A stretch of 64,000 nucleotides of DNA from an uncultured archaeon (lineage in GTDB: Archaea; Thermoplasmatota; Thermoplasmata; Thermoplasmatales; Thermoplasmataceae), in contig CP009479.1 of the NCBI GenBank assembly GCA_000965745.1, positions 2,162,688-2,226,687 of the forward strand, given 5' to 3'. Numbering within the stretch: the first letter of the stretch is position 1; every line of letters starts with the position of its first letter. Of this stretch, positions 54,157 to 64,000 are shown piece after piece. The translations under genes and the position numbers were made by a program. The notes under the pieces were generated by a model. The model saw nothing but the letters and a program-made list of their open reading frames with translations, was not told the DNA's origin and made no database searches.

Positions 54157-54229
54157 GGGACCGTGGGGTAGCTTGGTATCCTACCAGCTTGGGGTGTTGG
54201 TAACCTGAGTTCAAATCTCAGCGGTCCCA
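54157..54229 (+). tRNA. tRNA-Pro(GGG)
   Basis: GGGACCG/CGGTCCC acceptor stem, anticodon arm CCAGC-TTGGGGT-GTTGG, T-loop TTCAAAT; starts 1 bp after rpoN stop. Confidence 0.93.
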
Positions 54230-54239
54230 TCATATTCAT
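54225..54239 (+). other. Candidate 15-bp target site (duplication) of the casposon, TCCCATCATATTCAT
   Basis: Last 5 nt of tRNA-Pro plus 10 nt, directly before GGGGATATA; second copy expected outside the window. Confidence 0.6.
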
Positions 54240-54283
54240 GGGGATATAGATAAGACCGAAAAACGTGCCGCTTTTTATATCCC
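54240..54283 (+). repeat. Probable left terminal inverted repeat of the casposon
   Basis: Starts GGGGATATAG; internal IR GGGATATA (54241-54248)/TATATCCC (54276-54283); true TIR length unknown without right end. Confidence 0.65.
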
Positions 54284-54295
54284 ATTTTAAAAATT

Positions 54296-54392
54296 TTAGT
54301 CGCCTTTATCCGATTTCAGGTAAATCTCTAAAAGGGTTTTGGAAATTCTTGATTGAGTCTTCAACTAATTTCCATTTCTGTTTGAAATTCTT
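54296..54392 (-). pseudogene. Degenerate duplicate of casposon polB 3' end
   Basis: Reads NFKQK/NGN*LKTQSRISKTLLEIYL vs polB NFKQKIRNGNGLKNKSKISKMLFESYL; shared 16-mer at 54375-54390 and 55813-55828. Confidence 0.75.
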
Positions 54393-54421: not shown

Positions 54422-55663
54422 TCATTTATTTTGATCTCCCATCCATAAGGGTCTACTGAGTATGCATTGTAATACAATGATAGTGGGTACAAAGAAATCA
54501 TAAAACCACTGAGAAATGGTAGGTTCTTCGACAATATTCGAATGAACATAGTCATTAAGCTTGGAATATATCTCCGAGTAAATTATATCTCCAAAATATG
54601 AACCTTTTGCACTCTTTTGTATCTCTCTAAAAGAATCTACTACACACGAATTAATTCCCTCTAATTCTTCCCTTTGTAATTGAAGTTTAATCAACTTAGA
54701 CATTGCTCTAGTGTCAGGTCTTGAATAAATCCCGTAAATGGTTGCATTGTTCTCACAATCAGAATAACCACAAAGATAACCTTCTCCCTTATCAAATTCT
54801 GGCCCAATGAAAGTTAACTGAGAAAGTTCTTGTTTCAGGTCTTTAGTCAGTTCATTTTTGATTCCGAATCTCTTTTTTAAATCTTCTAACAAATTGCCTT
54901 CGTGTTGCTTGCACGCTCTCAAAGTAAACTCATCGTTGCTCATCAATATCCAGTAAAAATATTCCGTATTCCCAAGAGTCTTAGTTGCGATATCTGGCCA
55001 TTCATCAGTATCCTTTATCAAGTTCATAAAAAATTCATTGAGTGATTTTTCCAATAATTTTTTCAATCTTTGCTCTTCCTTGGTTGTAATTTTATCCTTA
55101 TCAAAATCAAACTTTGAAACGATATCTGGATAAAATTTATCTGATAGTTCTCGCAATGAGCTTATTGCACGTTTTCTTTCTTCCCCAAATTCTAATATTG
55201 GAAGAACTAAACCGTCTAAACTCAAAGGTTTCATTTTATCCCAATATCCAGAAAAAAAGGCATCTGCCATTGGATTAGTGCCTTCCTCATTTTTTTGGCT
55301 ATCTGGTACCCATGAAGAAACAGTAAACAGACCTGCGAAAAGAAGGTCTAACACCGATCTAATCTCCCTAAGTGAATACTTGATGTATCCCTCTCCAGCC
55401 AACTTTATTGAAATCCCTAATTCTCCAAAAATATCTGCAAGTAGAAGTTTAAACTGTTCTTCAATCTTCTTTCTAGTATTATCCGATGAAATAGATTCCA
55501 CATACCATGAATAATTGTCAAAGAGTTCAGATAAGTGGGAAATAGCTTTAGAAATCTCTTCATAAGTTGGATATGGAATATTGAAAATTTCATAAAAATC
55601 TTTGAGAAGAAGTCCTTTTTGTGCCCATTGGGTGATTCCGATGATATCTAGTTTTCTTGACAC
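54422..55663 (-). CDS. Casposon cargo protein, possibly HEPN-like (DUF5677-type)
   Basis: 413-aa ORF with LREIRSVLD and IYSKLNDYVH motifs; TTTATAAA box at 55681-55688. Confidence 0.6.
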   Translation of the reverse strand: MSRKLDIIGITQWAQKGLLLKDFYEIFNIPYPTYEEISKAISHLSELFDNYSWYVESISSDNTRKKIEEQFKLLLADIFGELGISIKLAGEGYIKYSLREIRSVLDLLFAGLFTVSSWVPDSQKNEEGTNPMADAFFSGYWDKMKPLSLDGLVLPILEFGEERKRAISSLRELSDKFYPDIVSKFDFDKDKITTKEEQRLKKLLEKSLNEFFMNLIKDTDEWPDIATKTLGNTEYFYWILMSNDEFTLRACKQHEGNLLEDLKKRFGIKNELTKDLKQELSQLTFIGPEFDKGEGYLCGYSDCENNATIYGIYSRPDTRAMSKLIKLQLQREELEGINSCVVDSFREIQKSAKGSYFGDIIYSEIYSKLNDYVHSNIVEEPTISQWFYDFFVPTIIVLQCILSRPLWMGDQNK

Positions 55664-55728: not shown

Positions 55729-56539
55729 CTAAATGTCCGTCAAACTCAAATAACTCTCAAAAAGCATCTTGCTAATCTTTGATTTGTTCTTCAATCCATT
55801 TCCATTTCTGATTTTCTGTTTGAAATTCCTTAAACCCCTTTCTGAAATACCCAACGCCTTGACTTCACTGGGCTTGAGTTTTAACGTCCATTGCATAAAC
55901 GCTTGTTTGTTCTCGTATTCAAGATAAGAATCATTGCTTACCCCGAATACACTAACTTCATCGATATTATTTGATTCCTTCCCAATGTATCTGATTCGGT
56001 CTGCGAATACGTGTTTCCTTTGGGCCTTGTTGTTAACATAATCGAACTTGTTATCGTTATGTCTCACGTACGCTGTTAACACATCTTCAAGGGATTTCCA
56101 GTATTCATTAGAAGGCAAAGTCAATGCAATTGAAGATTTTCCAGTCCTGTAATCTACAAATTCCCTATACTGGATTCCGTTTATGTCCTTTGAAAATGGT
56201 AATGACGGAATAACATCATTCTTCTCAGACCCTACGAGAATGAAATTGAAGGGCTTTATCTGTCTATTAAAGGGCTTCTTGTGATTCATCTCCTTGAAGC
56301 GATTAAGAATTGAAGGTTTCGAGATGGTAATTTGAGATACTGCAATCTTTTCTGAGTAATCTTCAAATTTATTGTTCAAGATATCTTTCCAAATCTGTTT
56401 TCCATTTATACCAAGGAGATGGCCCAATCCATGGGTGGAATACTTGAGTATTTCTACCTCTCCTTTGACAATCCTATACAGACAATATCGCTTTGCTGAA
56501 ATTCCATAAAACAAGATATCGTTCAACGGATTCTTGTTT
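55729..56539 (-). pseudogene. polB: Casposon family-B DNA polymerase, C-terminal fragment
   Basis: FYGISAKRY (KxY motif), HGLG, IKPFNF, IGKE; cut by IS3 left end. Confidence 0.85.
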
Positions 56540-56617
56540 TGTGCTGGCCCCTTAAATAATTGGACAACATTGGCTTATAGTAATAGAAAAGTATATATAG
56601 GGGGGTTCTAGGGGGAA

Positions 56618-56920
56618 ATGACTCGCAGATACTGGAAAGCGGAAGAGAAACTGGCACTCATCAACGAGATCAAAGAAAGCGGACATGTCGTTGAAACCTG
56701 CAGAAAATATTCTGTGGATCCATCCATGTTCTACCGTTGGAAACAGGCCTTCGATGCACTAGGCATGGATGGGCTCAGATCCCGTACAAGGTCCTTGGAA
56801 CCAGGCCTCAGAAAGCTGAAGAAGGAGAACGAGAGATTGAAGAAGATGCTTGCAGAGAAGGAACTGGAGGTATCACTGCTCCAGGAAGCATATAAAAAAA
56901 CGAGGAGGAAACCGCGTTGA
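56618..56920 (+). CDS. IS3 transposase OrfA (HTH + leucine zipper)
   Basis: CRKYSV.PS.FYRWK, LKKENERLKK.LAEKELE. Confidence 0.92.
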   Translation: MTRRYWKAEEKLALINEIKESGHVVETCRKYSVDPSMFYRWKQAFDALGMDGLRSRTRSLEPGLRKLKKENERLKKMLAEKELEVSLLQEAYKKTRRKPR

Positions 56921-57813
56921 TCAATGAGTATGCTGGACGTGGGCTCTCAACGACCAGAATCCTGGAACTTCTAAGGATACCACGGAGCACATTCTATCAT
57001 TCATCGCCTGCATTGCATCTCAAGAGAGGGAGGAAGCCTTCATCGATGACTGAACGCATTGTTGGCCAGGATATCATAATGATTCCCGATGATCAGGTCC
57101 TTGCCGACATCATTGAGTTGCTGTCAAGGGAATTTGTATGCTATGGATACAGGAAGGTCACCAAACATTTGCAGCGCACTGGCTACAGGATCAACAGGAA
57201 GAAGGTCTTCCGCATCATGAAAGAGAACCATCTTCTCAACCACACATACAACTACCGCAGCCCTGCAAAGAGGGTGGTTGAATCCATTGTCAGGGTTCAT
57301 AACCCGAATAAAGTCTGGGAGATGGACATCAAGTATGTGTACATACAGGGAGAGAATCGGACAGCATACCTGTTTGCAATGATTGACTGTTATACAAGAG
57401 AAGTTGTCGGAAAGTACCTGGGATACCACTGCACCTCTTCAGATGTGAAGATGGCAATGGATTTTGCCTTCATGGACAGGGGAATAGAGGCAATATCCAG
57501 TGTCAGGATCCGCAGTGATAATGGGACTCAATTCGTATCACGGATAGTGGAGCTGTTTCTCGCTTCATCCCATATCGAACATGAGAGGATCCATCCTGCA
57601 ACGCCCAAGGAGGACGGTTTCATCGAATCCTTCAATTCCATCCTTGAGAAGGAAGTGATCAGAAGGTTCGAGTTCTCTTCATTCCAGGATGCTGATGACA
57701 CCATTGATAGGTTCATTGCATTCTACAACAACGAGAGACTACACTCAGCCATAGGCTATAAAGCACCAAGGGAGGTTTATGAAAGATGGAAAGAAAATCT
57801 AATAGAAGAATGA
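56917..57813 (+). CDS. IS3 transposase OrfB (DDE)
   Basis: YGYRKV, WEMDIKY, SDNGTQF, IESFN, YNNERLHSAIGY..P; -1 frame relative to OrfA. Confidence 0.93.
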   Translation: MINEYAGRGLSTTRILELLRIPRSTFYHSSPALHLKRGRKPSSMTERIVGQDIIMIPDDQVLADIIELLSREFVCYGYRKVTKHLQRTGYRINRKKVFRIMKENHLLNHTYNYRSPAKRVVESIVRVHNPNKVWEMDIKYVYIQGENRTAYLFAMIDCYTREVVGKYLGYHCTSSDVKMAMDFAFMDRGIEAISSVRIRSDNGTQFVSRIVELFLASSHIEHERIHPATPKEDGFIESFNSILEKEVIRRFEFSSFQDADDTIDRFIAFYNNERLHSAIGYKAPREVYERWKENLIEE

Positions 57814-57863: not shown

Positions 57864-58586
57864 CTAATACAATTCAGATGTTATTCTAACGTCATTTATG
57901 TTGTAGTCGATGTATTTCTCGTTGATTTTCCCATGCTGTTCAATCTGAGTTTTTCTTGAAACGCTAAAATCCCTGCATGCAGAATCCAGAGAATGTGATC
58001 TGTCAGTTAAAGCAAAAGTGAGGGTCTTGAGGTCAACAAAGTATCCGGAATAATGCCTGTATTTCTTGTCGCTAGCTTTTCTCATGGGTTTCGCAAAGGA
58101 AATGAAAGACCTTTTCTGGTCTATGTTCTGTATCCGAATTCGTGGATTCCTCACATCCTCTGACAGCTTCAGTGAAAATCCGTCTTTTGTTTTGCGTGAG
58201 ATTCCATATCCAATGGCCAATCTTGACAGGTCAAAGGGCAAATTGAAGCCAATGACCTCAGCCCGCATTCTGAATGCGTATGGGTAGAACACATTATCCA
58301 CAAAGTCCCTGATTCGCATAACAACTATGTTATTCTCAGACCCGTAATCTTCTATGATTTTCCCGTCATTATCAGAAATATCACCATAAAACAGATACCA
58401 GTCCTCTTTGAAGCCGGTGCTAATCCTTGTTCTGATAAGACATGATCCAAAATTCAGGTTCTGATACTGGTCTGTGGTGGTTTCAGTATCAAGAATCAAA
58501 ACGATGTTTGAATTGTGAGATTCCGGTTCTTTGTGTTTGAGTTCCGACCTGTTATCTGTGTATGCCCTCACAAAGATATCGCTCAC
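57864..58586 (-). pseudogene. polB: Casposon family-B DNA polymerase, N-terminal 3'-5' exonuclease fragment
   Basis: ExoI LDTETT, ExoII GFNLPFDL, ExoIII YNINDV; ends 2 bp from IS right end. Confidence 0.87.
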
Positions 58587-58984
58587 AGGATCACCGGATA
58601 TCTTGATGTCAGGTATTCAGCAATCCTCTTGTATATGCCAATACCAGTTCTTTCATGCTTCAATTCACAAATGTCAATAATTCCCCTCTCCAAGAGAATT
58701 TCAGAATTCTGGTAATTCCATAATCTATGTTTGTCTGTTAGCTTCCTATGACATTCCAAACATACCGTTATAACCTCGTTGCCATGACTCCTGCCTCTGA
58801 TGTGATGTACTTCCAACTTTATTGGTGATCTGCAAATCTCACACTCGTTCTTTTTGTCTCTATGTTCATTCTCTAAAATATCTGTTATCCAGTCTTTTGC
58901 CTCTTGGTATTCATTGTCTACTATTTCCTTTGCTCTGAACAGGGTCTCGAATATTGTGCTGGATATGGATATCTTGGAAATCAA
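58583..58984 (-). CDS. HNH endonuclease
   Basis: CEIC...LEVHHI......N..TVC..CH. Confidence 0.85.
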   Translation of the reverse strand: MISKISISSTIFETLFRAKEIVDNEYQEAKDWITDILENEHRDKKNECEICRSPIKLEVHHIRGRSHGNEVITVCLECHRKLTDKHRLWNYQNSEILLERGIIDICELKHERTGIGIYKRIAEYLTSRYPVIL

Positions 58985-59631
58985 GACTTGTAAATCTCCC
59001 AGAATTCCGGTTCTTCCTGACTTTCAGCTATTTCGTAAAGCTTATCTGGGTCAGTTTCAAAGTGATGTAATTTACCATTTGCATCTTTGAAAGGTTTCTT
59101 GAATGGCTTCAAAACATCTGTGTTTCCTGTTCTCAGAAATTCTCTGATAGCAGAGTTATACTTTCCTATTCTTGATGCAGTTCGTGAATCTCTAACTTCA
59201 ATCCATGACTGTTTTCCATTTTCGTTTATGCTCATTACTCTTGATATTCTATCCTGAGACTTTGCAACCCATTTTCCTCTGATTTTTCTAAAAGAATTGG
59301 TGTTCTTGATAACTGTCTCTGGTGAAGTGTGCAACTCTCTAGATGCACTTGAAAGTGATTCTCCATTCCTGACTTTCCTCAGAACTTCAAGCGATTTTTC
59401 CCTTTGATTCAGGTCTTTCTTTGAAATGGATTTCCATGAACGTCTGTATATTGGTTCTGGTTTTGTTGCTGATACAACTCTTTCCCTGGATTTCGGATGA
59501 CCCCTAAGCTGTGATAATGAAGCGGTTGGATATTTTGCATGCAACCTGGCGATACGATTCCTGTAGGATTCTGATCCTTTGAAACTGGATAACCAATCCT
59601 GAAATGACCGGTATTCCGGTGAAAATGTCAT
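58981..59631 (-). CDS. Casposon-associated basic HTH protein
   Basis: GESLSSASRELHTSPETV HTH-like segment; 4-bp overlaps with neighbours. Confidence 0.65.
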   Translation of the reverse strand: MTFSPEYRSFQDWLSSFKGSESYRNRIARLHAKYPTASLSQLRGHPKSRERVVSATKPEPIYRRSWKSISKKDLNQREKSLEVLRKVRNGESLSSASRELHTSPETVIKNTNSFRKIRGKWVAKSQDRISRVMSINENGKQSWIEVRDSRTASRIGKYNSAIREFLRTGNTDVLKPFKKPFKDANGKLHHFETDPDKLYEIAESQEEPEFWEIYKS

Positions 59632-60101
59632 CTGAAATCGCCCTTGAGCAAGTTAAGGAAATTTTCATACGCAATGCTGTTAAACAGCTTCTCAAATAAT
59701 CTTATGTCAGACTCAAAAAACCGGTGTTTTTTGAAGATTTCAGCAAGGTTGGAGACTTCAATATCCGAGATGGGTTCTTTTGTTGTTAGTGAAGTAACAT
59801 TCTTATTGAGGGCCAAGGCAGTAAGAACTTCAAATATTACCCCGATTGTTTTTCCCCTGTACCAAAATGAATCACATTCTGACACTGACAAAATGTAAGG
59901 CTTCATTGACCTCTTACCTTTGAACTCAAGGCCATTCGGGTTAACCGTTATTGAATGCCCAAATGAATTCAGGAAATCAAGGTCATCCTTCTCAATTGAT
60001 ACGTTGTATAATCTGATTGAATGGGCATAGTGGATTTTATTCATTCTGTGAGCATTTGCATTTGGCTTGTGGGTCTGGTTATCCGCATAATCAGACATCA
60101 T
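59628..60101 (-). CDS. Hypothetical protein
   Basis: 157-aa ORF translationally coupled within the operon. Confidence 0.65.
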   Translation of the reverse strand: MMSDYADNQTHKPNANAHRMNKIHYAHSIRLYNVSIEKDDLDFLNSFGHSITVNPNGLEFKGKRSMKPYILSVSECDSFWYRGKTIGVIFEVLTALALNKNVTSLTTKEPISDIEVSNLAEIFKKHRFFESDIRLFEKLFNSIAYENFLNLLKGDFR

Positions 60102-60286
60102 TTTTTCTCACTCTCAGGATTCCAAATACCGAATGTCTCACGATTCAGCTTATTCCGTACAGAACCACATCTTGGGCATTTCACCCTGTACTTTGGAATG
60201 CCCTTGGAATAATTCCATTCATGTCCACAGACCAAGCATTTTACTGCTGTCTTCACAATTTTTTGTTTCCTCGCATTTATCACCAC
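60098..60286 (-). CDS. Small Zn-ribbon protein
   Basis: CLVCGHEW...CPRCGS; first gene of the leftward operon. Confidence 0.72.
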   Translation of the reverse strand: MVINARKQKIVKTAVKCLVCGHEWNYSKGIPKYRVKCPRCGSVRNKLNRETFGIWNPESEKK

Positions 60287-60288
60287 AT

Positions 60289-60339
60289 CACATATTATGT
60301 GGAAATATTCTAATAGACAGTTGACTATACTTTAGTCAA
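60289..60339. promoter_or_regulatory. Divergent control region with two palindromes
   Basis: CACATA-T-TATGTG (60289-60301) and TTGACTA-N5-TAGTCAA (60321-60339). Confidence 0.65.
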
Positions 60340-60968
60340 TGGCTTATGACAAATTCCGAACTCAAAAGGAAACGAAAGACAAGAATGAGAGGAAAATTTT
60401 GAATTTGCTCTATGATTCACCAATGAGATTCAAGGACTTACTTGAAGAAACAAGACTGTCAAGAGCTGGTCTTGATATTATATTGAAAAGACTTCAAGAC
60501 ACAAAACAGATAGAATCCATTATCGATGGTGGGAAACCTGCTTATTCACTAACAAAGAAAGGGGAGAAAACAGTCAAATCTATCCCCATTATTCAGGATA
60601 ACATAGAATCGATACTCAATGTAAAACACGAATATTCCAATGAAATGGGAAAATTTCGTCTTGGATATAAGGGAATAGACTTTGATGTGTTGAGGGATGC
60701 CCAAGTAGATGCCAACCTCACAAACACCTTTGAGGAAATTGCCAAGGAATGTCTCAAGAAATCCGAGAATACAATAGCAGATATTCCTGATATTGTCAGG
60801 GATAAATCAGAACTCAAAGGAAAAATGGTTCTTGCTCTCACAATAGATTTTGATGACATGAGAGAGCAATTTATGAAAAGAAACAATAAAGCTTGGAAAA
60901 AATTTGGCCTGAAATGGGAAAATGAGGAAGGTTGGGAAAGACTATTATCAGGGGAGGATCCAAAATGA
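60339..60968 (+). CDS. wHTH (MarR/ArsR-like) transcription regulator
   Basis: KIL.LL...PMRFKDL...T.LSRAGL...LKRL...Y.LT.KG. Confidence 0.8.
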   Translation: MAYDKFRTQKETKDKNERKILNLLYDSPMRFKDLLEETRLSRAGLDIILKRLQDTKQIESIIDGGKPAYSLTKKGEKTVKSIPIIQDNIESILNVKHEYSNEMGKFRLGYKGIDFDVLRDAQVDANLTNTFEEIAKECLKKSENTIADIPDIVRDKSELKGKMVLALTIDFDDMREQFMKRNNKAWKKFGLKWENEEGWERLLSGEDPK

Positions 60969-62230
60969 ACCCATTGCTGTTATCTGGATTTGGAATAAGC
61001 ATTGAGGTTAACAAAGCTCGCCTGACCATAAAGCAAAAGAATGACATTTTGACGTTTGAGCCTCACAGAATGCCATACGATTCCATTGTCATTGACGGTC
61101 ATTACGGTTCTATGAGTTTTGAGGCCATGCGTTGGTTATCCAAACATGATGTACCCGTAATTTTGTTAAACTGGAATGGCAATCTTTTATCAATAATGTC
61201 TCCAAAAGAGGGCAATAGTGGTCAACTGAGAATGAAACAGTACGAAAAATACCTTAAAAAAGAGGAAAGAACGGTAATAGCAGAAAAAATAATTAAAGAA
61301 AAAATAGGAAAATCGCTTGCTTTGCTTGAAAATTTAGCAGATTTTCATCAGGAAATAAACTTTGAAAAAATTAAAAAGGCATTTTCTAAGGAATTTGAGG
61401 ATTTTAACCTGAAAAAAGAGAAAATAAACATTCTAAAAGATGAAAAAACCAAGAAAAATAAAACAAATGCAGAAAAAAGGGATTTAAAAAAGAAAATAGC
61501 TGACCTAATGATGTATGAAGGCAGAATAGCATCAGCCTACTGGTCAGAATTGTCAGGAATTTTCAATAAAATAGCACCAGAATTTAATTTTGAGTCCAGA
61601 AAAAATCTCTCTTATTCCTGGAATATGAATGCATCAGACCCGATAAATGCACTACTGAATTATGGATATGCAATTCTTGAAGGAATGGTCAGAAAATACG
61701 TAAACACAATAGGGCTTGACCCATCTATTGGATTCTTGCATGAAATAGCACCCTCAAAATATCCACTGGTATATGATTTACAGGAATTGTTCAGACACGT
61801 TGTGGATTATTCGGTTATACAGATTCTTGAATCCGGTTTAAAAAAATCAGATTTCATTATCACTGAGAATTATCACATCCGGTTGAAGCCCAATACTGCA
61901 AGGTTATTGATTGAAAGAATAAAAGAGAATTTCAATCAACGTTATGATTTCAGAAATAAAAAGCATAGCCTTGAAAATATAATGCTTGAGAATATTCGGG
62001 AATTCAGCAAATATCTGGTGGATAAAAAAAATACACTTGATTTTGTAATGCCTGATATTGAGATAAAGAGGAATGACAGCACCAAGGTTCGGAAAAAAAT
62101 TGAGTCAATAACACCAGAGGGAAGAAAAAAACTAAAAATCAATAAATCTACATTGTGGTATCAGCAAAAGAAAATTAAAGAAGGGAAGCCGGTTAAACTC
62201 TATGAGAAGACTAAAGTGAGAATCTCATGA
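60965..62230 (+). CDS. cas1: Casposase (solo Cas1 with C-terminal HTH)
   Basis: YEG..A..YW, DPINALLNYGY, GLDP.IGFLH, LVYDLQELFR, C-terminal LKINKSTLWY; ATG 60965 overlaps upstream stop. Confidence 0.93.
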   Translation: MNPLLLSGFGISIEVNKARLTIKQKNDILTFEPHRMPYDSIVIDGHYGSMSFEAMRWLSKHDVPVILLNWNGNLLSIMSPKEGNSGQLRMKQYEKYLKKEERTVIAEKIIKEKIGKSLALLENLADFHQEINFEKIKKAFSKEFEDFNLKKEKINILKDEKTKKNKTNAEKRDLKKKIADLMMYEGRIASAYWSELSGIFNKIAPEFNFESRKNLSYSWNMNASDPINALLNYGYAILEGMVRKYVNTIGLDPSIGFLHEIAPSKYPLVYDLQELFRHVVDYSVIQILESGLKKSDFIITENYHIRLKPNTARLLIERIKENFNQRYDFRNKKHSLENIMLENIREFSKYLVDKKNTLDFVMPDIEIKRNDSTKVRKKIESITPEGRKKLKINKSTLWYQQKKIKEGKPVKLYEKTKVRIS

Positions 62231-63144
62231 ATAGCGGTAATTTTCCTAAATTTGATGAATTTTTATCCCCAATACTGAATTCCTGCAAGGATAGACAAGA
62301 GCATACACTTTCAGAGACCATAGAGAAAATGGCCACTGAATTCGGAATGAGTGATAACCAGAAAAATGCACTTTTACCAAGCGGTAAACGAACATATATT
62401 TATGACCGGGTTGAATGGGCCATCACTTATCTTGTTCAAGCGGGATTATTAGAAAGAACTGGACGGTCAAAGTTCAGAATTTCTGATGCTGGCTTGACAG
62501 AGCTTCCTGTGATGCCAAAAAAAATATCTCACTCCTATCTGCAAAAGTTTCCGTCTTTCGTAAGATTCAAGGAACTTCGACATCCAAAAAAACAAAATAC
62601 TGATGACTCAAATGGTATGACCCCCGATGAGGAACTAGAAGTTCTCTTTGAAAGAAGGGAAGACATTCTGATACAGAATTTGCTAAGTTCTATCTCCAAC
62701 ATCAAACCGTCAGACTTTGAAAGACTCATTATAGATTTGGTTCTTGCTCTTGGCTATGGCAAAAATCATGAAGAAATGGCTAGAGTTTTGGGGAAGTCAG
62801 GCGACCAGGGAGTTGACGGGGAGATATCTCAAGATAAATTGGGATTAGACAAGATTTATCTTCAAGCAAAAAAGTGGGATTCCAAAAGTTCAATTGGGTC
62901 TGGTCAAATAAGAGATTTCATAGGTGCGTTAACAATTAAGAACGCTCTAAAGGGGATTTTTATAACGACAGCTTCTTTTTCAAAGGATGCTAAAGAAACT
63001 GCCTTGAAAGATAACACTCACAAGATAGTTCTGATAGATGGAAATGAATTGGCAAGTTTGATGATTGAACATGGGATTGGAGTAAGAACTGTCAGAAATT
63101 ATGAATCAAAGGAAATTGATGAGGATTACTTTGAATCATTTTGA
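62227..63144 (+). CDS. mrr: Mrr-family type IV restriction endonuclease
   Basis: Mrr_N (LPSG....DRV.WA..YL..AGL) plus SGDQGVDG, YLQAKKW, GIFITT, LIDG. Confidence 0.93.
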   Translation: MNSGNFPKFDEFLSPILNSCKDRQEHTLSETIEKMATEFGMSDNQKNALLPSGKRTYIYDRVEWAITYLVQAGLLERTGRSKFRISDAGLTELPVMPKKISHSYLQKFPSFVRFKELRHPKKQNTDDSNGMTPDEELEVLFERREDILIQNLLSSISNIKPSDFERLIIDLVLALGYGKNHEEMARVLGKSGDQGVDGEISQDKLGLDKIYLQAKKWDSKSSIGSGQIRDFIGALTIKNALKGIFITTASFSKDAKETALKDNTHKIVLIDGNELASLMIEHGIGVRTVRNYESKEIDEDYFESF

Positions 63145-63158
63145 ATTGGTGAATTGAA

Positions 63159-64000
63159 ATGAAGAATTCCGGGGGTCACGAAGAATACAACATTGATTTC
63201 GAAAGAATTGTAGAGCTCATATCAAAATTTGAACATGCCAAGAAATCCGGTGAAATCAAGAATTACAATGAAGAATCAACAAAGAAGGATTTCATCTTAC
63301 CTTTGTTTGAAGCTCTTGGATGGAATGTATCCAATAGAGCCAAGAAAAACGATTCCATAAGTGCGGAAGAAACCATTTCCAAGAAGAGAGTGGATTATGG
63401 ATTCCGCATAAACGGTATTCCCAAGTTTTTCCTTGAAGCAAAATCCCTGAAAGAAGATTTCATACATACCAACAGGTCTTATGTCACACAGGCAATAGAT
63501 TATTCGTGGATGAAATCGTGCAGTTGGGCCATACTTACAAATTTTGAAACCATATCGGTAATAAATGCAGACATAAGAGAGAGCAATTTCACCAACAGTA
63601 TTTTCTTTACACTTCATCCAAGCGATTTCCTTAATGATGACAGATTCACACTACTTTCAAGAGATGCCATAGAGAACGGTGAGCTTGACAAACTTGCTAC
63701 AAAATGGGGAAGGAAACAGGTCAAAAATCCAATCAATAAACAACTTCTACAGGACATGATACATTTCCGTGAGATTCTTTCAAAGGATATTGTGAAAAAT
63801 AATCAAAACAAGCATCTAACTCAAGAAGATTTAGATGAATCGGTCCAAAGGATTCTTGACCGACTCATTTTCATAAGAAATGCTGAAGATAGGGAACTTG
63901 AAGAAAATCGTTTGCAGTCCGATCTAAGGCAATGGGCATCAAAAGGGAAGGGTCAACTGGTCAGAGAAATTTCAAAGGTATATGCTTATTTCGATCAACA
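63159..64000 (+). CDS. Type IIG/HsdR_N-like restriction-modification enzyme, N-terminal part (runs off window; absent from ORF track)
   Basis: NEESTK..FI.PLFEALGW, RVDY, FLEAK, QA..Y, ILTNFE, QRILDRLIFIR.AEDR; no stop to window end. Confidence 0.85.
   Translation, partial: MKNSGGHEEYNIDFERIVELISKFEHAKKSGEIKNYNEESTKKDFILPLFEALGWNVSNRAKKNDSISAEETISKKRVDYGFRINGIPKFFLEAKSLKEDFIHTNRSYVTQAIDYSWMKSCSWAILTNFETISVINADIRESNFTNSIFFTLHPSDFLNDDRFTLLSRDAIENGELDKLATKWGRKQVKNPINKQLLQDMIHFREILSKDIVKNNQNKHLTQEDLDESVQRILDRLIFIRNAEDRELEENRLQSDLRQWASKGKGQLVREISKVYAYFDQ

Follow-up and report, generated by a model that had tools for sequence, protein, structure and literature searches.

The adaptation module of CRISPR systems has been proposed to descend from casposons. 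The described elements closest to the one presented here are the family-2 casposons, such as AciBoo-C1 of Aciduliprofundum boonei (Krupovic et al. 2014, PMC4046053; Beguin et al. 2016, PMC5137440), which carry genes for Cas1, PolB, an endonuclease of the HNH type as well as helix-turn-helix (HTH) proteins and have long terminal inverted repeats (TIRs) starting GGGGATATAG. The A. boonei casposon also has a 15-bp target duplication, which overlaps the 3' end of a tRNA-Pro gene by about 4–5 bp (PMC5137440). According to a 2023 review little is known about the regulation of casposon mobility (PMC9939771), in agreement with the first-pass annotation of the present sequence, where casposon regulation had been called poorly characterised. 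No cis-regulatory site of a casposon is described in the literature we searched, and the sole experimental report found there on transcriptional control of a casposon cas1 gene concerns MM_0565, a CARF-winged helix-turn-helix (wHTH) protein of Methanosarcina mazei, which affects the transcription of the casposon cas1-solo gene and acts as an inducer when overproduced (PMC7465815). We have analysed a 64,000-nucleotide stretch (the window) of the genome of an uncultured archaeon of the Thermoplasmataceae, which holds a complete family-2-type casposon of about 13.2 kb with the same Cas1, PolB, HNH and HTH genes. The end of the window is the end of a single 2.23-Mb contig, and the sequence resumes at the first base of that contig (L002, the start of genome C1); positions without a locus name are those of the window. 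The subject of this analysis is the short spacer from which the two gene blocks of the casposon diverge, with the following features:

60098–60286, minus strand: first leftward gene, a zinc-ribbon (Zn-ribbon) protein of 62 amino acids (aa) with a CxxC...CxxC pattern and a GTG start
60289–60301: left palindrome, CACATA-T-TATGTG
60301–60316: AT-rich core resembling a B recognition element (BRE) and TATA box, GGAAATATTCTAATAG, 23–36 nt before the rightward ATG and 17–30 nt before the leftward GTG
60313–60328: dyad 1, ATAGaCA-GT-TGACTAT, with one mismatch in the window, the A at 60317
60321–60339: dyad 2, TTGACTA-N5-TAGTCAA, the one reported in the first-pass annotation; its left arm is common with dyad 1, and the wHTH ATG starts on its final A
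60339–60968, plus strand: wHTH protein of 209 aa, ATG start, winged helix at about residues 10–80, C-terminal domain at 83–205 predicted to dimerise

The first-pass annotation described a 52-bp gap, two perfect palindromes and 4-bp overlaps between neighbouring genes, and all of this is borne out by the coordinates read from the sequence. The spacer, 60287–60338, is 52 bp long, the left palindrome is 3 nt from the leftward start, and a looser dyad, CCACAT-N8-ATGTGG (60283–60302), overlaps the leftward GTG. The overlaps are at 60098/60101, 59628/59631, 58981/58984 and 58583/58586 in the leftward block, and at 60965–60968 (the ATGA of wHTH/cas1) and 62227–62230 (cas1/mrr) in the rightward one. 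What had been overlooked is a third and better-conserved dyad, dyad 1. To the right of the TATA-like core there are three TAGTCA half-sites before the wHTH start, at 60314–60319, 60322–60327 and 60333–60338, which make up two overlapping dyads. On balance we find it probable that these right-hand dyads are the site where a dimer of the wHTH protein represses the casposase operon, beside a TATA core shared by both operons; the binding, the repression, the transcription starts and the sharing of the TATA box are what we infer from the comparison of sequences and from structure models.

The palindromes by themselves say little. In 20,000 shuffles of 60284–60342 a perfect inverted repeat with arms of at least 6 and a loop of at most 8 was present in 17%, one with arms of at least 7 in 5%, and both kinds as separate sites in 0.3%. 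Neither of them is thus remarkable alone, and the case must rest on comparison with relatives, for which a set of about 15 related elements was available. The wHTH protein has 18 homologues in a set of 5.8 billion proteins, with identities from 86 down to 39%. DNA was obtained for 13 relative loci, and further, more distant loci came from a profile scan of metagenomes. A scan of a genome collection gave one relative, a class-wide genome search found the wHTH family in just 2 other genomes out of 400, and no relative was found in a metagenome scan with the single protein or in a scan of viral contigs. Contigs from four soil runs (two studies) were identical to the window over 59600–61000, so there was no population variation to use. 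Near window position 60964 the same soil samples hold other casposase genes with an upstream sequence unlike the wHTH gene, which implies that several casposon types coexist in that community. In all relatives for which the locus was obtained, a single short spacer separates the diverging gene blocks. Nearly all loci with enough flank have HNH and PolB leftward, usually behind genes for a 157-aa and a 216-aa protein, and wHTH and Cas1 rightward, the exceptions being L013, which is truncated, and L011, which has different small genes.

The comparison points to the right-hand dyads. The gap is identical to that of L003 at 51 of 52 positions, to that of L004 at 47 and to that of L006 at 50, as compared to just 67–76% identity to these loci at the third codon positions of the wHTH, cas1 and 157-aa genes. 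Dyad 1 is perfect (ATAGTCA-GT-TGACTAT) in L003, L004, L006 and L026, with a T where the window has A60317. In L008, L009, L011, L013 and L022 it reads (A)ACTCA-G(G/T)-TGAGT(T), with the G/C position flipped in both arms. When pairing was scored on an ungapped alignment of 14 sequences, 80.6% of the dyad 1 cells were paired as compared to 72% in shuffles, only 1 of 500 shuffles scored as high, and 3 of the 7 pairs change on both sides; with the partner columns slid, pairing was 26–40%. Among L008, L009, L011 and L013 the 28-nt core of TATA box and dyad 1 is 86–96% identical, the wHTH proteins 63–68% and the 30 nt to the left of the core 30–57%. In L008 and L009 the conserved TCAATG is not in frame with the codon at which the gene really starts, which shows that it is conserved as DNA and not as coding sequence. 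In each distant member a perfect dyad adjoins the start codon, with a sequence of its own: ACTTTA-C-TAAAGT in L018, TATAGT-TAT-ACTATA in L016, TAGTATA-G-TATACTA in L020 and TAAAGTATACTTTA in L022. The per-lineage shuffle values combine, by Fisher's method, to P = 0.004 for the dyads with the discovery clade left out.

An explanation without any operator can also be considered, where the palindromes have arisen by chance in the AT-rich DNA of the core promoter, and the conservation reflects the constraint on BRE, TATA and initiator together with recent common ancestry. The frequency of 6-bp and 7-bp arms in the shuffles (17% and 5%) agrees with this, silent sites of the Zn-ribbon gene alongside are conserved too, and the left palindrome, which is not conserved, is explained by chance as well as by any other idea. 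However, chance does not account for three dyad 1 pairs that change on both sides, for a score matched by so few shuffles or for the fall in pairing when the columns are slid. Neither does it account for dyads that recur in the same place with other sequences in distant members, and an archaeal promoter needs no symmetry between TATA box and start. We find this explanation improbable.

One of the relatives, L008, is a natural recombinant. Its flanks resemble the window clade, with an identity of 0.64–0.96; this applies to the left stretch, from 700 bp to the left of the anchor up to the TATA core, and once more to the sequence from about +300 on. Between them, from the TATA box to about codon 90 of the wHTH gene, L008 is 0.70–0.88 identical to L011 and only 0.40–0.54 to the window clade. 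The stretch that was exchanged, about 280 bp, consists of the dyads and the N-terminal winged-helix domain, up to a conserved IPIIQD linker, which means that the operator type follows the DNA-binding domain and not the leftward module or the C-terminal domain. Such a swap is the pattern that would be expected of a matched pair of operator and repressor. Where the predicted recognition helix begins, the residues likewise differ according to operator class: SRAGLD, SHTGLS and S(P/Q)MGLT. It is tempting to take this one step further and regard operator and wHTH DNA-binding domain as an exchangeable cassette, an 'immunity region', in which the dimer beside a single shared TATA box sets the output of both the casposase and the PolB operon. 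We offer this only tentatively and think it rather unlikely in this full form. If true, the resident element would have a silent state, and relatives that arrive would be repressed or not according to specificity class.

Structure prediction supports that the product of the first rightward gene is a winged-helix protein similar to MarR, HxlR and PadR. In the AlphaFold2 model the winged helix covers residues about 10–80 with a predicted local distance difference test score (pLDDT) of 85–94 and the order helix-helix-helix-strand-strand. Foldseek matched it to MepR, ZitR, YodB, PadR-like and ArsR-type proteins, the first four at E values of 1e-4 to 1e-3, and a profile of the wHTH family searched against PDB matched YodB at 3e-4. 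The C-terminal half was poorly predicted as a monomer. A model of the homodimer scored 0.74, as compared to 0.00 for the best of three controls; of proteins solved as one-chain pairs 20 of 30 reached this mark, and of those solved as single chains 1 of 23. The runs agreed in at least 71% of the contacts, the pLDDT of the partner was at least 68, and the interface was formed by residues 83–205. The model thus supports a homodimer held together by a new C-terminal domain of about 120 residues without a family, and an interface there would explain the poor monomer prediction of this half. A modelled dimer with two winged helices fits a dyad site.

The wHTH protein could instead be mainly an accessory factor of transposition, which recognises target or ends together with the casposase, the dyads then serving a host factor or some other purpose; a dual role is conceivable too. 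Roles in target recognition have been suggested for the conserved HTH proteins of casposons (Krupovic et al. 2014, PMC4046053), the stop codon of wHTH and the start of cas1 overlap, and an HTH gene is directly upstream of cas1 in the other family-2 casposons examined. Two of these, L053 and L054, are more distant family-2 casposons from the same archaeal family with an HTH protein of about 345 aa in this position, and in L053 its N-terminal wHTH aligns with the window wHTH at 27% identity over 95 residues (E 1e-5). On the other hand, no operator-like dyad is present in the TIRs, in the target or elsewhere in the element, and a search of the window and L002 for dyad 1 gave other copies at chance level only, with 3 mismatches. 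A TAGTC-like word in the left TIR was tried as a link between TIR and operator and dropped, as it is not kept in the TIRs of the relatives. An accessory role also leaves unexplained why the operator travels with the DNA-binding domain, and we hold it to be quite improbable.

The position of the dyads suggests how repression by the wHTH dimer could work. The core is conserved across the relatives as GAAATATT(A/C)(A/T)AATA. The rightward and leftward start codons are 53 bp apart with the core about midway, and it is therefore geometrically possible that one TATA box serves both operons. Long open reading frames (ORFs) of the host have a peak of TATA-like hexamers centred 25–26 nt before the start codon, which is the signature of leaderless mRNAs, and a second class of host genes has Shine-Dalgarno-like motifs. 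Bidirectional promoters with a shared TATA box are described from Pyrococcus furiosus, where the starts are 49–50 bp apart and the motif is BRE-TATA-BRE (PMC6640164). The geometry here would permit both operons to be transcribed from a common TATA box as leaderless or nearly leaderless mRNAs. The three half-sites span about -26 to +1 of the rightward unit, and dyad 1 reaches with its left arm onto the edge of the TATA core; the dyad also covers the spot at which a BRE for leftward transcription would be expected. The region between TATA box and start codon is where archaeal repressors typically block the recruitment of polymerase. The mechanism we propose is that the wHTH homodimer, joined by its C-terminal domain, binds the TAGTCA half-sites and from this position blocks the recruitment of RNA polymerase. 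It would then repress its own operon, that is wHTH, casposase, Mrr and the restriction-modification cargo, and since the wHTH stop overlaps the cas1 start, such autorepression would hold the casposase output low and steady. Given the left arm of dyad 1 at the edge of the TATA core, the bound protein would probably also affect the leftward replication operon, where transcription might be lowered or conceivably raised.

The same sequence has been considered as RNA, with the right palindrome folding as a hairpin that would mask the start codon of wHTH and thereby control its translation. When 60316–60375 was folded, a stem of 8 bp covered the ATG, with an energy of -10.6 kcal/mol (z = -2.1), and 5 of 200 shuffles were as good. 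But with the core only 23–36 nt before the ATG the transcript should start inside or after the hairpin, dyad 1 is further upstream still, and Rfam gave no match. A role as RNA hairpin is very improbable.

The left palindrome gives a different picture from the right-hand dyads. It is kept in L003, L006 and L026. In L004/L005, with wHTH proteins 84% identical to that of the window, it is broken (AACATATTACGTA), and no dyad with arms of at least 5 is found in its place in L009, L013, L015, L027 and L028. L008 has a different 6-4-6 dyad, ACATGA-CACA-TCATGT, with the same centre as the looser dyad of the window. Conservation upstream of orthologues had been proposed as a check in the first-pass annotation, and it is seen for the right-hand dyads, with changes in both arms, and for the left palindrome only in the nearest relatives. 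The palindrome is thus a weak candidate for an operator read by a product of the leftward module, and a second operator for the Zn-ribbon protein is a conjecture. This protein has only sub-threshold matches in Pfam. Its sequence is kept in L004, L006, L008, L009, L011 and L015, mostly as an ORF that gene callers skip, and L006 has an ATG at the codon where the window has its GTG (60286). In L003 (L003:7760–7948), a relative with 86% identity, arginine stands in place of one of the four cysteines of the Zn-ribbon (KCPRCG to KRPRCG), which may reflect decay of the gene or a sequencing error.

A switch with two repressors would have the wHTH protein on the right dyads and the Zn-ribbon protein, or the 216-aa putative HTH protein of the leftward block, on the left palindrome, making the operons mutually antagonistic as in a temperate phage. 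Such an arrangement agrees with the fact that each operon opens with a small putative DNA-binding protein, and the left palindrome, 3–15 nt before the leftward start, is a mirror of the right site. Furthermore, the left region of L008 stays with the leftward module, and there the outer pair of the palindrome is changed from C..G to G..C. The broken palindrome in L004/L005 argues against it, as does the lack of a corresponding dyad in the five loci listed above, and the Zn-ribbon protein belongs to no known DNA-binding family. In lambda both repressor proteins share the same operators, whereas the left and right palindromes of the casposon are unrelated in sequence. We regard two repressors as improbable, and 'phage-like', in the sense of a bistable switch, is an analogy only. 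Of the earlier proposal of an autoregulatory repressor and operator, the right half is strengthened by the conserved dyads, the wHTH fold, the dimer model and the co-inheritance in the recombinant, and the left half is weak. The phage-like switch proposed with it is not supported, the two palindromes being unlike each other, the left one not conserved and nothing identifying a second repressor.

Several observations weigh against a wHTH operator at the right-hand dyads. Each palindrome taken singly is within chance, and the pair is unusual only post hoc. The best-conserved dyad, dyad 1, is mismatched in the window copy itself, the spacing between half-sites 2 and 3 varies between clades (a loop of 5 as compared to 3), and the both-arm changes come from about two clades, so that the independent events are few. 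The third codon positions of the Zn-ribbon gene are also highly conserved, 83–87%, as is the whole stretch 60100–60340, and part of the signal from close relatives may reflect a segment that is regionally conserved or recently exchanged. The exchange in L008 is a single event, and since operator and DNA-binding domain are adjacent it is possible that one pair of crossovers carried both by position alone. In L053 and L054 the divergent layout and a core of the GGAAAATATTAT type are common, but no dyads can be aligned. A purine-rich BRE is visible only in the rightward direction (GGAAA), none being evident leftward. The wHTH protein scores below the curated Pfam cut-offs, with 18.3 bits for HxlR (cut-off 20.8), 17.5 for HTH_5 (22) and 19.7 for HVO_A0261_N (35), and by sequence it is not a member of any curated family.

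The remaining features of the casposon are the following:

54157–54229, plus strand: tRNA-Pro (GGG), the integration target, found by ARAGORN
54226–54240: left copy of the 15-bp target-site duplication CCCATCATATTCATG; the right copy is at L002:3409–3423 (genome C1:3409–3423)
54241–54325: left TIR, about 85 bp, starting GGGGATATAGATAAG; the partner TIR ends at L002:3408
54422–55663, minus strand: cargo ORF of 413 aa, without Pfam family
55729–56565, minus strand: C-terminal fragment of polB, by tblastn residues 595–867 of the intact 883-aa PolB of L003
56618–57813, plus strand: IS3-family insertion sequence, with orfA (HTH_Tnp_1, 56618–56920) and orfB (rve, 56917–57813)
57864–58586, minus strand: N-terminal fragment of polB, 240 aa as an ORF, by tblastn residues 1–244 of the L003 PolB
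58583–58984, minus strand: HNH endonuclease, 133 aa (Pfam HNH at 1e-4, 22.6 bits as compared to a cut-off of 21.4)
58981–59631, minus strand: 216-aa protein, possibly HTH (sub-threshold matches only, E 0.04–0.15)
59628–60101, minus strand: 157-aa protein without family; most relatives have a gene of similar length there
60965–62230, plus strand: casposase (Cas1), 421 aa (Pfam Cas_Cas1 at 6.5e-57)
62227–63144, plus strand: Mrr-type restriction endonuclease, 305 aa (Pfam Mrr_cat at 4e-31)
63159–64000, plus strand: start of a restriction-modification cargo ORF (HSDR_N), which crosses the contig junction into L002 and is followed by an Eco57I/MmeI-type methylase ORF

The element has a stand-alone Cas1, a polB gene that is present but broken, and TIRs with a target duplication, as in family 2. 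Of the family-2 core set, HNH passes its cut-off, the wHTH protein is assigned by fold, and the second HTH protein, of 216 aa, has only matches at E 0.04–0.15; a gene of that length is found in its position in most relatives. No cas2 or CRISPR array lies beside Cas1, the neighbours being wHTH and Mrr, and general ORF and repeat work on the element showed no array-like repeats. The GC content of the element is about 33–41% as compared to 45–52% in the host. The left copy of the target duplication overlaps the 3' end of tRNA-Pro(GGG) by about 4–5 bp, in agreement with the A. boonei casposon, and the long TIRs start with GGGGATATAG in both elements. The first 45 nt or so of the TIR are kept in the TIRs of the relatives. 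The tblastn comparison with the 883-aa PolB of L003 also showed that the IS3 element stands in place of PolB residues 245–594, about 350 residues. With polB disrupted, the window copy cannot make its own polymerase or replicate itself, and its replication arm cannot work. The casposase and wHTH genes are whole. The first-pass calls of cas1, mrr and HNH are thus backed by Pfam. A family B polymerase gene is indeed part of the leftward operon, although only as an N-terminal fragment of 240 aa cut by the insertion sequence, and the protein called HTH exists with nothing better than sub-threshold matches. The proposed coupling of replication and integration genes agrees with two blocks diverging from one short spacer, but in this copy the replication side of it is dead.

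A few further observations concern the cargo and the ends. The restriction-modification cargo (63159–64000 and L002:1–3236) consists of two overlapping ORFs, one of about 700 aa with HSDR_N followed by the 707-aa methylase ORF, and in the relatives it is one protein of 897–976 aa; the split could be due to a frameshift or an insertion. Directly past the right end of the casposon, the segment L002:3424–5709 (C1:3424–5709), of about 2.3 kb, closes with a second copy of the tRNA-Pro 3' end (AATCTCAGCGGTCCCAT, L002:5693–5709). It encodes a thioredoxin-like ORF and a nucleotidyltransferase/HEPN pair, and looks like the remnant of another element at the same tRNA. L004/L005 is a related casposon that occupies the same locus, rpoN/tRNA-Pro, in a related host and is oriented the opposite way. 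In that case the tRNA adjoins the restriction-modification end and not the polB end, and a tyrosine integrase is encoded just outside the other end. In L009, an 11.3-kb contig, the 20 nt outside both TIRs (L009:129 and L009:11191) are also inverted copies of each other, which suggests an assembly artefact or a longer inverted terminus.

Compared with the family-2 casposons described so far, the casposon of the window differs in its polB, broken by the IS3 element, and in having a 209-aa wHTH protein with a distinct C-terminal domain upstream of cas1, where L053 and L054 have their HTH protein of about 345 aa. MM_0565, the regulator from M. mazei, is host- and CRISPR-encoded, in contrast to the candidate presented here, which is encoded by the casposon and would act in cis. 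With the repressors of the MarR, HxlR (YodB) and PadR type the wHTH protein shares the winged-helix fold, the profile match to YodB and a modelled homodimer, and its candidate palindromic site overlaps its own promoter as theirs do. It differs from them in scoring below the Pfam cut-offs and in its archaeal promoter setting, and while MarR dimerises via N- and C-terminal helices, the wHTH protein is predicted to do so via a C-terminal domain of about 120 residues. The shared-TATA promoters of P. furiosus (PMC6640164) likewise have one AT-rich, nearly symmetric element midway between divergent starts about 50 bp apart, the 53 bp of the casposon being measured between start codons. They serve a gene and an antisense RNA, whereas here there are two real operons and no clear leftward BRE.

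Repressor systems at divergent promoters are well known from mobile elements, such as TetR of Tn10 with tetO1/O2, TnpR of Tn3 at res, and the immunity regions of lambda. As in these, the regulator gene of the casposon is next to its own candidate palindromic sites in a short divergent spacer, and the exchange in L008 resembles that in the imm regions of lambdoid phages, where operator and DNA-binding domain are exchanged as one cassette. What sets the casposon apart is the archaeal transcription machinery. The casposon itself is of a known kind, and a winged-helix repressor that regulates itself from a divergent promoter follows a design familiar from TetR, Tn3 TnpR and phage immunity regions. 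New are the setting in a casposon, a defined site backed by comparison of relatives, the predicted dimerisation domain, a single TATA box that both operons may share, and the exchange of operator and domain as a cassette. The analysis names an element-encoded protein for direct testing, together with a site of about 27 bp whose half-sites are defined, natural variants in specificity (the AGTCA of the window type and the ACTCA of the L008 type) and a ready-made chimera. Autorepression at divergent promoters is widespread and no new principle, and the gain is a first concrete handle on the control of casposons.

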